A DNA stretch of 64,000 nucleotides from Clostridiales bacterium (lineage in GTDB: Bacteria > Bacillota > Clostridia > Christensenellales > Aristaeellaceae): the NCBI GenBank assembly GCA_024695415.1, contig JAILIE010000142.1, forward strand, positions 4,847 to 68,846. The letters run 5' to 3'. Every line of letters begins with the position of its first letter. Within the stretch, counting starts at the first letter, position 1. The notes beneath the pieces are model-generated. The model worked only from the letters and a program-made list of their open reading frames with translations, was not told the DNA's origin and searched no databases. Position numbers and translations under genes: made by a program. Positions 53,078-58,181 of the stretch are shown here, in pieces.

Positions 53078-53875
53078 ATGAACGAAGAAAACGCCCGGAC
53101 GCCGGAATCCATTGCCGGAATCCTGGGAAACGCGTCCGGAACGACAGACGACCTGGGGAAATCCGGGGCCCGGGTATTCCTGTATGCGGATTACGTCCTG
53201 AAAGTCCGGCCCGCGGGCGGATGGGAAACCGTGGATACACGGATCCTCCGGTGGCTGGCGGGGAAGCTTCCGGTTCCGGAAGTGGCCGCGCACGAGGTCC
53301 GGGATGGGCTGGACTGGCTGCTGATGACCCGGATCAGGGGAAAGATGCTGTGCGATCCTTCCGTCATGGAAAATCCCGCGCTGCTGCTGGACTGCATGGC
53401 GGAAGCCCTGCATATGCTGTGGTCTGTTCCCGCGGAAGGCTGCCCCTTTATCCGGCCGGTGAAGGAGAACCTGGATCACGCCGAAAAAGCGATCCTGTCC
53501 GGCAGGTTCGATCCGTCGGACTGTGAGCCGGAAACCTTCGGGCCGGGCGGGTTTGCCGATCCGGCGGAGCTCCTGGAATGGCTGAGGAACCATCAGCCGG
53601 AAGAGGACAGCGTACTGACGCACGGCGATTTCTGCCTGCCGAACCTGTTTACGGACGGGAAGCGTTTCAGCGGTTTCATCGACCTGGGAAGCGCCGGGAT
53701 ATGTGACCGGTGGATGGATCTTGCCCTGGGATGGCGGAGCCTGAAGCATAACAGCGACGGGCACTACGGAAAGATCTATCCGCGAATCAACCCGGACGAT
53801 CTGTTCCGGGCCGCGGGGGTTCCGAAGGATGAGGAGAAACTGCGGTATTATATCCTGCTGGACGAACTGAACTGA
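53078..53875 (+). CDS. Aminoglycoside 3'-phosphotransferase-like kinase
   Basis: GKSGARV, WLAGKLPVPEV, THGDFCLPN, FIDLG, DRWMDLA, YYILLDEL. Start uncertain (53066 or 53078). Confidence 0.85.
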   Translation: MNEENARTPESIAGILGNASGTTDDLGKSGARVFLYADYVLKVRPAGGWETVDTRILRWLAGKLPVPEVAAHEVRDGLDWLLMTRIRGKMLCDPSVMENPALLLDCMAEALHMLWSVPAEGCPFIRPVKENLDHAEKAILSGRFDPSDCEPETFGPGGFADPAELLEWLRNHQPEEDSVLTHGDFCLPNLFTDGKRFSGFIDLGSAGICDRWMDLALGWRSLKHNSDGHYGKIYPRINPDDLFRAAGVPKDEEKLRYYILLDELN

Positions 53876-53954
53876 AAACCGGTTCCCAAACGCCGGAAAC
53901 CGGTCCGCCATGGATTCCGGGATCAACCCACACCATAACAGAACCATACAGCAA

Positions 53955-53978
53955 GGGGGCAGGCCGCAGCCTGCCCCC
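53955..53978 (-). terminator. Hairpin terminator
   Basis: GGGGGCAGG-CCGCAG-CCTGCCCCC downstream of both convergent genes. Confidence 0.55.
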
Positions 53979-53999
53979 TGCCCGTATCGCGCGGACGGT

Positions 54000-54425
54000 T
54001 TATTCTTTTTCGGAATCGTCCGGATTGACTTCTACCGTGGGGATATCCTCTACCGCGCCGCTCTCGCCGGCGGGCTCCTCTTCATTCTCTTCGCCGGGAG
54101 CGCATTCTTCGGGATCGTCGGCCGACAGCGTATCCCAGGCCTTCTTCACTTCATCACTGACTGTCTTTACAGCCTTTTCGGCTGTGCCGGCGACGGTATC
54201 CGCGGCTTTCTTCACGGCCTTGCCGATATCCACCCCTTTGCCTTCCTCATTCTCCAGATGGAGGCTGCATCCCAGAAGCGGAGCGATCACCATGCCGGCG
54301 ATGCTCATCTTCGGAGCGATCAGCAATCCGGGAAGAGCCAGAATTCCGGGCATATTGACGAGTTCCTTGCCATCCCGTTCGACCTTTACGCGATAAGCGG
54401 TCAGTTCATCCACAAAGTTCTTCAT
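54000..54425 (-). CDS. DUF4342-like small membrane-associated protein with acidic tail
   Basis: RVKVERDGKELVNMP followed by a hydrophobic hairpin LLIAP...LLGC. AAGGAGG RBS. Confidence 0.6.
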   Translation of the reverse strand: MKNFVDELTAYRVKVERDGKELVNMPGILALPGLLIAPKMSIAGMVIAPLLGCSLHLENEEGKGVDIGKAVKKAADTVAGTAEKAVKTVSDEVKKAWDTLSADDPEECAPGEENEEEPAGESGAVEDIPTVEVNPDDSEKE

Positions 54426-54640
54426 GTTCGTTCCTCCTTCCGCGGAAATCATGATCCTTTCGATCCGGTATCCTTTTTCCGCTCCAGTTTAATCGTGTAC
54501 CGTACGGGAAGGGGGCCGTACACCTCATCCCCCCCGGTACGTATACAGGATAACCGGATCCGGGGCAGAAAAACAGGGATAGAAGAGAGAAATACGATCC
54601 TCTATTTTTCCAACCGGACGCGTAAACGCCGGAAAGGATA

Positions 54641-56563
54641 TCATTCCTTTCCCTGCGTTTCGGGTTGTTTTCCTCCTTTCAGGACAATCACCGCGTCCGG
54701 ATCGAACTTCCGGTCCATTGTATGGGCGGCCTTCCGGTTGGCAACGGTATCGAAAACAATCGAGAAATTGTAGTCCGGCGGGTAAAGCTCAGCGGCCGGG
54801 ACAAGAAGCTTCAGCCGGTTGTGGCGTACGGTCATCTTCACTCCTTGCAGCTGGATCACGACATTGCCCTCATCATCCGCGGGCCGGTATACGATCGCGT
54901 TCTTTTTGTCCGGCAGCAGCTGGACGCTGTCGCCCACGCAGAAATGTTCAAAGCTGCCTTCCGCCTTTTTCTCCAGGCGCTGCAGGCGGGTGACGGGGAT
55001 AGGCATGGCTTTGTGCCGCGCTTCCTGCGCCGCGCCCGGCCCGCGGTCCGCGACCTGCCGGGCCCTGTCCAGCAGGCCTTCATCCATGCCGAGCCTGCGG
55101 GCAATCTCAATTGCGCAGCTTTTTCCGCTTTTACCCAGTTCCAGCCGGTAAAGCGGCATCAGGGACGCACGGTCAAACGCCATCCGGGCGGAGATCACGT
55201 GTTCGGTCTGCTCTGCCCATTGTTTGATCTGTGGATCATGGGTGGTGACCAGGAAGAAACATCCGCGCCGGAGCAGTTCCTCCAGGATCGCGGCCGCCAG
55301 GCCGGAACCTTCCGCGGGGTCGGTGCCGCTGCCGAGTTCATCCAGCAGGACCAGGCTGTCCCGGCTGCATTTCCGGAGAATCCGGATGACATTGGTCATA
55401 TGGCCGGAAAAGGTGGAAAGGTTCTGGCTGATGCTCTGGCTGTCGCCGATATCGCACAGGACGCGGTCCATCATCCCGATGACGGTTCCTTCCGCGCAGG
55501 GAATGTGCAGCCCGCTCTGTGCCATCAGGGTCAGCAGGCCCACGGTTTTCAGGCAGACGGTCTTTCCGCCGGTGTTCGGCCCGGTGACAGCGATGCCGGT
55601 GTCCGGCAGGGAAAGCTCCAGGTTCAGCGGTACGCAGGCGGCACGGTCCAGCAGGGGATGCCGGGCGTCCACCAGGCGGATCCTGCGCTCCGCGGTAATC
55701 TCCGCGGGCCGGGCACCCATCTCCAGGCTCAGTTTTGCCCGGGTAAAAAGAACGTCCAGATCCGTCATGACCCGGATCGCGCTGCGCAGGGAATCCGCTT
55801 CGGAAGCGACCCGGTTGCTGAGCTCCCAGAGGACCCGGCGCTCTTCCGTATCAATATCCATCATCAGCTGATCAAGTTCCCCGCGGAGGGCCTGGACGGC
55901 GGAGGGCTCAATAAAGACAGTGGTTCCCTTGCCGGAAGCGTCGACAAGGCGTCCGGGGAATTGCGCCTGGAAGCGCTTCTGCACCGGAACGACATAACAG
56001 CCGCTGCGCCGGGTGATATAACTGTCCGCCAGCTCTTTCCGGTGGTGGAGAATGATCTGATTCAGCTTTTCACGGATGCGCTGTTCCGTATGCTCTTTCC
56101 GGCGCCGAAGATTCCGGAGCGCGGGGGAGGCGTCGTCCAGGATCGCATCCTCCCGCACCGAACGCTCGATATCTTCTTCCAGCGAGGTCAGGTCCGGCAA
56201 TTCGGTATGCCAGGAGGCAATGCCGGCACTATAGCCCTGTACGTTCTGCAGATAGCGGCACAGACGCCGGACAGCGGTACAGAAACGGGCGACTGAAGCA
56301 AGCTGCGCGGGCAGCAGCATGCCGTCCCGGAGCGCTTCGTTCAGGCCCTCTTCCGTTCCTTCTGTTTCCGCCAGCGGCGGTGTGCCGGCGCCTTCCATGA
56401 CGCGGCGCGCGGCGGTGGTTTCTTCCATCCGGGCGCGGCAAAGCCCTTCATTCATGAGCGGAGCGGTATCCGCCAGAATCCGGCGGGCCGCCCGGGAAAC
56501 GGCCTGGTCTTTCAGTTGTTCGATGATCTGATCAAAACCGAGTGATATCATATCCTGTGTCAT
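54641..56563 (-). CDS. MutS2-family ATPase paralogue lacking the SMR domain
   Basis: ILDDASPAL, DASGKGTTVFIEP, ARHPLL, TGPNTGGKT, DIGDSQSISQNLSTFSGH, LDELGSGTDPAEG, TTH. KOW-like VGDSV C-terminus; no HGxG SMR motif. AGGAG RBS before ATG 56563. Confidence 0.88.
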   Translation of the reverse strand: MTQDMISLGFDQIIEQLKDQAVSRAARRILADTAPLMNEGLCRARMEETTAARRVMEGAGTPPLAETEGTEEGLNEALRDGMLLPAQLASVARFCTAVRRLCRYLQNVQGYSAGIASWHTELPDLTSLEEDIERSVREDAILDDASPALRNLRRRKEHTEQRIREKLNQIILHHRKELADSYITRRSGCYVVPVQKRFQAQFPGRLVDASGKGTTVFIEPSAVQALRGELDQLMMDIDTEERRVLWELSNRVASEADSLRSAIRVMTDLDVLFTRAKLSLEMGARPAEITAERRIRLVDARHPLLDRAACVPLNLELSLPDTGIAVTGPNTGGKTVCLKTVGLLTLMAQSGLHIPCAEGTVIGMMDRVLCDIGDSQSISQNLSTFSGHMTNVIRILRKCSRDSLVLLDELGSGTDPAEGSGLAAAILEELLRRGCFFLVTTHDPQIKQWAEQTEHVISARMAFDRASLMPLYRLELGKSGKSCAIEIARRLGMDEGLLDRARQVADRGPGAAQEARHKAMPIPVTRLQRLEKKAEGSFEHFCVGDSVQLLPDKKNAIVYRPADDEGNVVIQLQGVKMTVRHNRLKLLVPAAELYPPDYNFSIVFDTVANRKAAHTMDRKFDPDAVIVLKGGKQPETQGKE

Positions 56564-56696
56564 GATGGTTTCTCCTGTTCGTTTCGGTATATGACATGAA
56601 CAGGAACCGGAGAAGGCGGCACAGGGAAAACGCAAACAAAAAAGTGCCCGGTTTCCGTCTGTACCGCGCCATGGCATCAGCAAACAAGCGGTCATG

Positions 56697-56720
56697 TCAC
56701 CGCTTTATTTCATTCGCCAT
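56697..56720 (-). promoter_or_regulatory. Putative leader peptide MANEIKR* in an attenuator-like 5' UTR
   Basis: GGGGA RBS, 7-codon ORF whose end lies in hairpin AAGCGGT-gacatg-ACCGCTT, followed by a weaker stem and a U6 tract. Confidence 0.5.
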
Positions 56721-56798
56721 GTTCCCCGTTACAGAACAGTCTCCAAACACACCTCGTACGCAGGATTGCCTGTTTGAATCAGGATCACTGCCAGGCAG

Positions 56799-56828
56799 AT
56801 TATAGGGGGACTGAAACGGACTTGTCAA
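56799..56828 (-). promoter_or_regulatory. Consensus sigma-A promoter for the MutS2-like gene
   Basis: TTGACA-18 bp-TATAAT. Confidence 0.8.
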
Positions 56829-56859
56829 CAGTTTCCCGGCATGAAACGAAAAAAGACGC

Positions 56860-56911
56860 TTGACAAGTCACAATTCCCCGCCTATAATAATTGCGCACAA
56901 GTAAATTGTGC
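56860..56911 (+). promoter_or_regulatory. Consensus sigma-A promoter plus OhrR-type operator
   Basis: TTGACA-17 bp-TATAAT, then dyad GCACAAGT-A-AATTGTGC, similar to the OhrR box TACAATT-N-AATTGTA. Confidence 0.8.
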
Positions 56912-56944
56912 AAGATCATGTAGCATTCGGGAGATGAGACGGAG

Positions 56945-57406
56945 ATGGAAGCAAAGAACCTGACCTATGAAAGCGTTAAGCTGTGCAACCAGGTCTGTTT
57001 TCCATTGTATGCCTGCTCCAAGGAAATGATCCGGCAGTACGGGCCGCTCCTGAAGGAAATGGACCTGACCTATACGCAGTATCTGGTGATGATGGTCCTG
57101 TGGGAAAGGCAGACGGTATCCTCCCGGGAGCTGTCAGAGTGCGTTCACCTGGATTACGGCACCCTGACGCCTGTGCTGAAACGGCTGGAGCATGCCGGCT
57201 ACATTCAGCGGACACGTTCGCCCGAGGACGAGCGCCTGCTGACGCTGACACTGACCGAGTCCGGAAAAAGCCTGCGGGACCAGGCAGTTTCCATTCCCCC
57301 CGCCATCGCGGAATGCATGGGACTGACCCCGGAGGAATTCCAGGCCCTGTATGCGCTGACGTACAAAGCGCTTCGCCACATGGAAGAAAACAATACCATC
57401 AAATAA
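56945..57406 (+). CDS. ohrR: MarR-family regulator, OhrR-like
   Basis: QVCFPLYACS sensing Cys, LTYTQYLVMMVLWE, TLTPVLKRLE, DER. Confidence 0.8.
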   Translation: MEAKNLTYESVKLCNQVCFPLYACSKEMIRQYGPLLKEMDLTYTQYLVMMVLWERQTVSSRELSECVHLDYGTLTPVLKRLEHAGYIQRTRSPEDERLLTLTLTESGKSLRDQAVSIPPAIAECMGLTPEEFQALYALTYKALRHMEENNTIK

Positions 57407-57423
57407 AAACGGAGGGAAAAACG

Positions 57424-57969
57424 ATGAAAAACGTGTATGATTTCACAGTGAAGGACAGGACGGGAAACGAAGTGAGCCTCGGCGATTACACCGGGAAGGT
57501 GCTGCTGATCGTCAACACGGCTACCGGCTGCGGCTTCACCCCGCATTATGACCCCCTGGAGGCGATGTATAAGGAATTCCGGGACCGGGGATTCGAAATC
57601 CTGGATTTTCCCTGCAATCAGTTCGCGAACCAGGCCCCCGGTTCGGAGGATGAGATCCATGAATTCTGCACGCTGAAATTCGGCACGGAGTTTCCGCAGT
57701 TCGCCAAGATCGATGTCAACGGAGAGGACGCTGACCCGCTGTTCGCGTATCTGGCGACCGAAAAGCCGTTCGCCGGTTTCGGAAAAGGCCTGAAGAACGC
57801 CGCGCTGAACAAATTCGCGGATATGAACAACCGGAAATTCGGCGAGAAGGCGTACATCAAATGGAATTTCACGAAGTTCCTTGTCAACCGGAACGGCGAA
57901 GTCGTCGCGCGCTTTGAGCCCACGACCGATATGGAGGAAGTCCGGGAGGCTGTCGCTGCCGCGCTGTAA
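57424..57969 (+). CDS. gpx: Glutathione peroxidase family (Cys type)
   Basis: VNTATGCGFTP, FPCNQF, KIDVNG, WNFTKFLV. GGAGG RBS. Confidence 0.92.
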   Translation: MKNVYDFTVKDRTGNEVSLGDYTGKVLLIVNTATGCGFTPHYDPLEAMYKEFRDRGFEILDFPCNQFANQAPGSEDEIHEFCTLKFGTEFPQFAKIDVNGEDADPLFAYLATEKPFAGFGKGLKNAALNKFADMNNRKFGEKAYIKWNFTKFLVNRNGEVVARFEPTTDMEEVREAVAAAL

Positions 57970-58181
57970 AAGAACGCGGATGTGCCATGAACGGTTACAG
58001 GCGATTGCGGTATATCTTCACGGCCGGGAATCGTATATGATCCTTTCGCAAGGGGAGCGGGAAAAGTGTCAGTCCCGCAGGCGGTGAGGCAAAGCCGGAA
58101 GGAACCCGGACGGGTCCGTCGGAACGGACGGGAGATCTGCTCTGTAGATTTTCCCGGAAAGAATACGGAAGGAGCAACCCC

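Follow-up and report, generated by a model that had tools for sequence, protein, structure and literature searches.

A conserved leader with a five-codon reading frame and a predicted transcription attenuator precedes an Smr-less MutS2 paralogue in Clostridia

The window analysed here is a stretch of 64,000 nucleotides (nt) of contig JAILIE010000142.1 from a Clostridiales bacterium. Towards its end, on the minus strand, lies a gene for a 640-residue MutS2-like protein (P0001) that lacks the Smr domain and is preceded by a long, structured leader. Sequence comparison strongly supports the presence, in front of this Smr-less MutS2 paralogue, of an attenuator architecture that depends on an upstream open reading frame (uORF), as well as its conservation across Clostridia. 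Taken as a whole, the evidence inclines us, by a modest degree, to the view that the gene is a monocistronic unit with its own promoter under a ribosome-dependent transcription attenuator, and that its product is a ribosome-splitting MutS2 paralogue. The role of MutS2 as a splitter of collided ribosomes in Gram-positive bacteria has been recognized only recently, and to our knowledge HflXr is the one case in which ribosome splitting acts as an antibiotic-resistance mechanism. We found no publication on the bacterial Smr-less MutS2 lineage, on its leader, or on an attenuator of MutS2.

A first-pass annotation of the window, made from the DNA letters and a list of open reading frames, had proposed a consensus promoter at 56799-56828 and a leader of about 230 nt. 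Both were borne out: the promoter boxes match the consensus throughout, a 640-codon frame opens with an ATG at 56563, after a leader of approximately 229 nt, and ends at 54641, and transcription is expected to start near 56792. TTGACA...TATAAT boxes were also seen 5' of orthologue leaders, and the upstream regions remain alignable down to 50% protein identity. The leader folds more strongly than shuffled sequence (z = -3.9). An Rfam scan of 53500-58000 with E values up to 1 gave no match within the leader, and a pattern search and a covariance model returned only the known copy from the same genome. The elements of the leader, in the order of transcription, are as follows.

56799..56828, minus strand: promoter of the sigma-70 type, TTGACA-18 nt-TATAAT, with 12/12 consensus positions matched
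56752..56755, minus strand: Shine-Dalgarno (SD) sequence of the uORF, GAGG, 5 nt before the TTG start; GGAGG in most orthologues
56743..56750, minus strand: 5' strand of the long-range helix, GUGUUUGG, which includes the uORF start codon; predicted to pair with CCGGGCAC
56729..56746, minus strand: uORF TTG GAG ACT GTT CTG TAA (METVL*, 5 codons), conserved; likely ribosome-stall sensor
56697..56720, minus strand: open reading frame (ORF) MANEIKR*, 7 codons, present in the sequence; probably incidental
56670..56721, minus strand: stem P2, CAUGGC (56721-56716) with GCCAUG (56675-56670), which encloses P3
56687..56704, minus strand: hairpin P3, AGCGGU GACAUG ACCGCU, the apex of the leader (AAGCGGU/ACCGCUU at 56705-56686)
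56682..56687, minus strand: TTGTTT directly 3' of P3, which fits the NusG-dependent pause motif TTNTTT
56638..56663, minus strand: 3' strand of the long-range helix, UACAG ACGG AAA CCGGGCAC and a run of six U (U6); predicted intrinsic terminator
56572..56614, minus strand: predicted SD-sequestering hairpin of the 3' leader, with UUCUCC at 56614-56609, UUCCUGUUC at 56606-56598 and UCAUG at 56599-56595

Evidence for a translated leader comes from the uORF. Reading frames of the METVL* type were found at 28/28 family loci, at about 50 metagenome loci and at 64 of the 74 usable loci of other Clostridia, and all the orthologue leaders examined have a G-rich SD-like run 4-9 nt 5' of its start codon. 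The short forms have 4-6 codons (METVL, MESVR, MLSVL, MSVR and MSVC) and the long forms 9-12 (for example, MSVLSVKGLHN). When 54 leaders were aligned, the codons read TTG at position 1, GAG or GAA at position 2, ACT, ACG, TCG or TCT at position 3 and GTT, GTC, GTA or GTG at position 4, followed by a variable codon and TAA or TGA. The changes at Glu and Val are synonymous only, and codon 3 is restricted to Ser and Thr. The stop is always kept, though it switches between TAA, TGA and TAG; length differs by whole codons; and the starts vary between ATG, TTG and GTG at a fixed distance from the SD sequence. In Clostridium acetobutylicum, the uORF is GTG AGT GTT TAG (MSV*), with serine taken from the other codon family (AGT, not TCG). 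This codon pattern indicates selection at the level of translation, for which base pairing alone gives no explanation; as far as alignments can tell, it shows a conserved uORF under coding selection on [Ser/Thr]-Val. Arrest by chloramphenicol requires a penultimate Ser, Thr or Ala, for example in stalling on M-T-I (10.1101/2021.06.17.448903). The invariant Ser/Thr-Val would fit such a chloramphenicol-type, drug-dependent arrest, or another translation defect, and by this analogy we regard it as a lead, not as a result.

When 56 leaders were analyzed with RNAalifold, the long-range helix, stem P2 and hairpin P3 were obtained. Helices 2-3 were 96-97% paired, with changes on both sides in seven of nine pairs, and P3 was 98% paired, with a GC to UA double change in seven sequences. 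Covariation was counted on the structure extended by a few pairs: 94% of the cells were paired, compared with 29-48% when the partners were slid, and changes on both sides occurred at 15 pairs, compared with 2.9 in shuffles (0/500 shuffles reached 15). The earlier proposal of a hairpin AAGCGGT/ACCGCTT is confirmed, as this hairpin is conserved with compensatory changes, and so is that of a U6 run, which lies at 56643-56638 and is abutted by CCGGGCAC at 56651-56644. In nine sequences, G-to-A changes within CCGGGCAC turn U.G into U-A pairs of the long-range helix. The changes of this kind at alignment columns 126-128 fit that helix and do not fit the alternative local hairpin GCGCGG/CCGGGC, which they would disrupt at two of the three columns.

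Single-sequence folds paired the remainder of the uORF with the strand 5' of CCGGGCAC, and compensation specific to lineages was seen there: codon 5 is CUG in the window and faces CAG, and in another leader (L005) the two triplets are exchanged. Across 28 lineages, the ribosome-binding region of the uORF paired best with its own downstream leader, at a median rank of 3 of 28. In distant leaders this region likewise forms the 5' strand of a long helix, the terminator often being a separate hairpin, and a run of T5-7 between the uORF and the gene was present in nearly all orthologue leaders. The "second imperfect stem" proposed earlier is real, in the form of a local hairpin of -8.9 kcal/mol before U6, but the better-supported partner of the pre-U6 strand is the ribosome-binding region of the uORF. 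By calculation, the blocked state is approximately 15 kcal/mol less stable than the long hairpin. In this clade the helix ends at the U6 terminator, and a ribosome held on the uORF should therefore block termination. The sequence following P3 is TTNTTT in 49/56 leaders and YTNTTT in six more, and a TGTTTG-type motif occurs 3' of the inner hairpin in 21/28 diverse lineages; the TTNTTT motif and its role have been described for stem-loop SL-2 of vmlR (PMC9226507).

In the 3' part of the leader, UUCUCC, UUCCUGUUC and the invariant UCAUG are complementary to the main SD sequence GGAG (56575-56572) and the start codon, and the minimum free energy (MFE) fold of the window contains the SD-sequestering hairpin with 9 base pairs. 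Across 39 leaders, GUUCAUGUC and UUCYCCG are near-invariant, and RNAalifold returned only five invariant pairs and no covariation in this hairpin. As a consequence, its prediction is based on conservation and one MFE fold.

These features suggest the following sequence of events. RNA polymerase would transcribe the strongly SD-led 5-codon uORF (M-E-T-V-L), then P2 and P3, and would probably pause at TTGTTT after P3. During the pause a ribosome could load on the uORF, and polymerase and ribosome would be synchronized. If the ribosome finishes the uORF and leaves, the SD sequence, the start codon and the coding region of the uORF would pair with the strand before U6, and the resulting long hairpin, capped by P2/P3, would end transcription at 56638. 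A ribosome held on the uORF would instead cover the 5' strand, only the weak local hairpin could form, and polymerase would read through into the gene. A further, translational layer of control may come from the hairpin over the main SD sequence and start codon. The product would most likely split stalled or collided ribosomes under translation stress, beside a constitutive canonical MutS2. From the leader and the protein we infer the pausing, the occlusion by the ribosome, the inducing signal and the action on ribosomes, whereas induction by translation inhibitors, ribosome clearing and resistance are suggested only by analogy with B. subtilis MutS2 (PMC10897456), the vmlR leader (PMC9226507) and hflXr (PMC6310831).

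The protein encoded downstream was divided into the following regions.

54641..56563, minus strand: gene for the 640-residue MutS2 paralogue P0001, without Smr and coiled coil, with a MutS2 core
55043..56563, minus strand: core, clamp and ABC ATPase domains (residues 1-507), with Walker A GPNTGGKT at residues 328-335
54800..54934, minus strand: KOW-like/MSSS SH3-type beta barrel (residues 544-588), assigned by fold match
54689..54796, minus strand: C-terminal tail LYPxDYxFSIxFDTVxNRKAxHxMxRK (residues 590-625), family-specific, in place of Smr

The first-pass annotation had described a 640-residue protein that keeps the MutS2 core, the ATPase and a KOW-like domain and lacks the long coiled coil and Smr, and our results agree with this description, the KOW-like domain being assigned by its fold. 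P0001 scored 561 bits against the NCBIfam model TIGR01069 for MutS2 (cut-off 400) over residues 6-506, and Pfam returned MutS_V only; Pfam found no Smr (PF01713) in P0001, as against a score of 89 bits in the canonical paralogue. Among the proteins of solved structure, the closest in sequence is Bacillus subtilis MutS2 on a collided disome (7qv3; E 1e-89, residues 6-519), the other best ones being the MutS2 cores of Thermotoga maritima and Thermus thermophilus. The AlphaFold model has a predicted local distance difference test (pLDDT) score of 84, which rises above 90 over most of residues 1-507, and it superimposes on MutS2 cores; the fold matches 7qv3, 9kce and 7vuf at E 1e-35 to 1e-45, with a template modelling (TM) score of about 0.7 for B. 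subtilis MutS2. Walker A, Walker B (LLDELGSGTDP), the signature STFS and the His switch TTH are invariant in 28 orthologues, and judging from these motifs the ATPase is intact.

Residues 508-543 form a low-confidence linker of about 35 residues where the coiled coil would be, and in the alignment the segment of about 130 residues that makes up the coiled coil of the canonical paralogue has no counterpart in P0001. The barrel that follows is five-stranded; its best fold match in the PDB is the KOW domain of B. subtilis MutS2 on the collided 70S ribosome (8r55_z, E 4e-4), followed by KOW domains of Spt5/NusG, and it aligns with the KOW domain of the canonical paralogue at E 0.009. The tail is basic, and its residues Y594, P595, Y598, N609, R610 and K611 are invariant.

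The genome from which the window comes is a metagenome-assembled genome (MAG), approximately 80% complete and related to Aristaeella. A separate full-length MutS2, the presence of which the first-pass annotation had left to be confirmed, was found there: it has 922 residues, with MSSS and Smr domains. The genome also encodes MutS1 and an RqcH homologue. The canonical 922-residue protein (L002:115-2883, plus strand, contig C134) carries an insert of about 130 residues just before Walker A, which consists of four Gly/Pro/Arg-rich repeats of about 33 residues (EPPRAASGGKSVGGEVNRSKRAPQ...), and the open frames of canonical MutS2 are oversized in some relatives too, with 1020 and 1109 residues.

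The short form occurs in about 29 of 121 family genomes, and nearly all of the carriers also have a canonical MutS2 of about 790 residues. A quick maximum-likelihood IQ-TREE search with 28 short and 21 canonical proteins gave one branch that splits the two sets, with a Shimodaira-Hasegawa-like approximate likelihood-ratio test (SH-aLRT) value of 92, the short proteins being on longer branches. Searching 1.84 billion representatives with a profile of the C-terminal module yielded 359 clusters (50% identity). In all of them the module stands at the very C-terminus, and full-length members are 630-730 residues long. The KOW-like part of the profile also matched 19 separate stretches, as a barrel array, in a 2426-residue protein (P0169) of the representative library. 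With one genome scanned per species, at least 594 relatives were confirmed. They come from Christensenellales, Oscillospiraceae, Lachnospiraceae, Ca. Limiplasma, Desulfotomaculum and others, and short-form copies are also carried by C. acetobutylicum pSOL1 and by Paenibacillus replicons. All plasmid copies are on non-mobilizable replicons.

The pSOL1 member of C. acetobutylicum ATCC 824, CA_RS19705 (L264:1090-3282), has a leader with an SD sequence and the MSV* uORF. Its long helix includes the ribosome-binding region of the uORF (fold z = -5.1), and a separate terminator, AGCUGUGG...CCAUGGCU, is followed by U6. The literature on the C. acetobutylicum locus tags that we guessed to correspond, CAP0099 and CAP0100, contained nothing relevant. 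Since this model organism carries a family member, it offers a tractable test system.

The covariance model of the leader matched in 18/150 family genomes, and all matches adjoin a short MutS2 gene except three. In one genome (G013; L120:763-1720, minus strand) a full leader (E 4e-31) stands before a gene for a 217-residue GNAT acetyltransferase (L120:763-1416) and is joined to it exactly at the start codon. In another (G005; L132:1440-2100, plus strand) a diverged second copy of the leader, with the uORF MESVA*, stands before a homologous GNAT gene. Thus, both clear exceptions concern the same GNAT family, and from its sequence context the leader appears to be a portable cassette. It was present at only 2/31 GNAT loci, which argues against a general GNAT regulon. 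The third match, in G064 (L131, E 0.007), was marginal. It faces a convergent gene at the end of a contig and was set aside.

The closest architectural parallel is the leader of vmlR, the ABC-F resistance gene of B. subtilis (Takada et al. 2022; PMC9226507). Both leaders contain the same four modules in the same order, i.e. an SD-led tiny uORF within a helix, a pause hairpin with TTNTTT, an intrinsic terminator and an SD-sequestering hairpin, and in both a translation ATPase is encoded downstream, an ABC-F protein there and a MutS2 paralogue here. There is no sequence relationship between the two, and the vmlR uORF has 3 codons as against 4-6 here. In this clade the uORF region is predicted to pair straight with the 3' strand of the terminator, whereas vmlR uses a local anti-antiterminator and a separate antiterminator. 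The conserved [S/T]-V peptide also suggests arrest at the stage of elongation, unlike the arrest of vmlR at initiation.

Precedent for resistance by ribosome splitting is provided by rli80-hflXr (lmo0762) of Listeria monocytogenes (Duval et al. 2018; PMC6310831). There too, a housekeeping ribosome-splitting factor has a paralogue that is kept beside the constitutive copy and is transcribed under the control of a uORF-dependent attenuator. HflX is a GTPase, however, unlike the MutS-type ABC ATPase described here; the peptide of rli80 is 14 residues long and carries a macrolide RLR motif, as compared with 3-12 residues and [S/T]-V in these leaders; and resistance and induction have been demonstrated for hflXr, whereas the present system is known from its sequence.

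With respect to the protein, the reference is MutS2/RqcU of B. subtilis (Cerullo et al. 2022; Park et al. 2023, PMC10897456; PDB 7qv3 and 8r55). Loss of this protein causes hypersensitivity to chloramphenicol, tetracycline and erythromycin, and its ATPase is essential, whereas deletion of Smr or mutation of KOW makes it merely partly defective (PMC10897456). The core, clamp and ATPase of the two proteins align end to end, a KOW-like barrel is predicted in the paralogue as well, and the ATPase, intact in the paralogue, is the part essential for disome splitting. The paralogue differs in having a conserved basic NRK tail instead of the long coiled coil and Smr, in forming a separate, faster-evolving branch compared with the canonical MutS2 of the same genomes, and in its predicted control by an attenuator. 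Plants provide another natural Smr-less MutS2 that exists alongside an Smr-containing paralogue: genetic evidence links MutS2A to the quality control of ribosomes in plastids and to the tolerance of inhibitors of plastid ribosomes (10.1101/2025.09.02.673837; PMC11275761). MutS2A arose, however, by an independent duplication of cyanobacterial origin, and has no uORF attenuator.

The intergenic region upstream is shared with a divergent pair of genes, for a MarR/OhrR-like regulator (56945-57406, plus strand) and a glutathione peroxidase, within 56860-57969 on the plus strand. The pair lies behind a second perfect promoter, TTGACA-17-TATAAT (56860-56888), and an inverted repeat, TGCACAATTTACTTGTGCG (56912-56894), is likely an operator. 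No conserved neighbours (DUF4342, MarR, glutathione peroxidase or the 316-residue ORF) were found among approximately 109 loci.

Other readings of the leader have to be considered. In the first-pass annotation, the sensing frame was the 7-codon MANEIKR*, at 56720-56697, and a ribosome stalled on its last codons was to melt the AAGCGGT/ACCGCTT hairpin. This frame does exist, its ATG is retained in 50/56 close leaders, and many of its versions have 7 codons and a basic end (KR, RTR or KKR; RRR also occurs among close relatives); as it begins 8 nt 3' of the conserved uORF stop, re-initiation on it would be conceivable. However, its peptide varies and its length ranges from 2 to more than 20 codons, the ATG is missing in leaders L009, L010, L012 and L013, there is no counterpart in distant lineages, and the G-run lies just 3 nt from the ATG. 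The ATG belongs to the self-complementary CAUG of the covarying stem P2, and in leader L038 its change to ACG is accompanied by a compensatory change in the partner. The frame is thus probably incidental; the loss of the ATG, the variable length and the position of the ATG within P2 speak against a conserved sensor role for it, and the version built upon it is highly improbable. What stands of the earlier proposal is the architecture, a uORF attenuator before a MutS2 paralogue, with the leader structure conserved 5' of orthologues; the conserved frame is a different one, METVL* at 56746-56729, and the terminator is built otherwise. Equally, one might view the leader as a riboswitch that binds a ligand or a protein, possibly the MutS2-like protein, with the tiny ORF as a structural by-product. 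The strongly conserved structure, the near-invariant single-stranded UGUUUGC and the base pairing of the whole uORF region in the ground state are compatible with such a device. Pairing alone cannot, however, explain four Val codons, two Glu codons, the restriction of codon 3 to Ser/Thr or the switching of stops, nor the use of AGT versus TCG for Ser or of ATG, TTG and GTG starts at a fixed distance from the SD sequence, and no Rfam family matched; we find a riboswitch scarcely credible.

If a ribosome-dependent attenuator is accepted, its natural signal could still be general trouble in translation and not an antibiotic, such as too little charged Val or Ser tRNA, too few ribosomes, or termination or recycling that is slow on tiny ORFs; in that case the protein would assist ribosome quality control in times of stress. 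Val, Ile and Leu abound in the long-form uORFs (MLIVSVMVNFN, MSVVSVEVKDN and MLIVFVAVIVK), which recall branched-chain amino-acid leader peptides; the gene lies on the chromosome, accompanied neither by conserved neighbours nor by resistance genes; and the immobile nature of the plasmid replicons points the same way. Against this, a uORF of 4-6 codons with a single Val would be a poor amino-acid sensor compared with the runs of regulatory codons in classical leaders, penultimate Ser/Thr is a known context of chloramphenicol arrest, and the nearest architectural matches, vmlR and hflXr, respond to drugs. A non-antibiotic signal therefore appears unlikely to us, though it deserves serious attention. 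It could also be that the protein acts on DNA, as in classical MutS2 roles (suppression of recombination or processing of branched or oxidized DNA), and that the leader only links its level to the status of translation. The MutS2 core does bind Holliday junctions and D-loops in Thermus and Helicobacter (PMC11275761), and the gene in the window is divergent from the MarR-glutathione peroxidase pair. That pair was found at 1 of approximately 109 loci only, however; the Smr domain, which is associated with nuclease activity, is missing; the barrel that is kept matches the domain binding ribosomal protein uS10; and a sensor of ribosome occupancy is hard to rationalize for a DNA enzyme. We consider a role on DNA to be quite improbable.

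The preferred reading, a ribosome-dependent attenuator before a ribosome-splitting MutS2 paralogue, also has several points against it. In the leader, a strong SD sequence on a 5-codon ORF could yield high occupancy without stalling, and Val-rich long uORFs such as MLIVSVMVNFN may reflect sensing of amino acids or plain constraints on the RNA. With the uORF region blocked, the -8.9 kcal/mol hairpin stays before U6 and might itself terminate transcription, and this same hairpin accounts better for the conserved GCGCGG. No separate antiterminator was found in this clade, and the geometry of the switch is not uniform, as a relay with a separate terminator seems to operate in other lineages. In the protein, the barrel is weak by sequence (Pfam MSSS 18 bits against a cut-off of 26.8, E 0.002, and in 3/28 members), the missing coiled coil and Smr are parts that help to recruit B. 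subtilis MutS2 to disomes, and MutS2 proteins also bind branched DNA, which would allow a role there.

A more specific proposal goes further, and we put it forward tentatively, as a possibility with the odds against it. According to this proposal, Smr-less MutS2 paralogues would be a class of inducible antibiotic-tolerance factor widespread in Bacillota of gut, rumen and soil (at least 594 species genomes). The [Ser/Thr]-Val mini-peptide would sense phenicol-type inhibitors of peptidyl transferase through an arrest that depends on the drug, the ribosome held in this way would physically keep the terminator from folding, and the ATPase would split drug-stalled ribosomes in the manner of HflXr; the same sensor cassette would be reused for the GNAT acetyltransferase.

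As a second, regulated lineage of MutS2, the paralogue would extend inducible ribosome rescue to a new ATPase family; it occurs in hundreds of species of Clostridia, among them commensals of the gut and rumen and the model C. acetobutylicum. The paralogue would then be a natural variant, without Smr and coiled coil, for dissecting how MutS2 recognizes ribosomes. The leader would constitute a new family outside Rfam, and its mini-peptide could reveal natural inhibitors that anaerobes meet. The annotation of genes now labelled "endonuclease MutS2" or "DNA mismatch repair protein MutS" would be affected as well.

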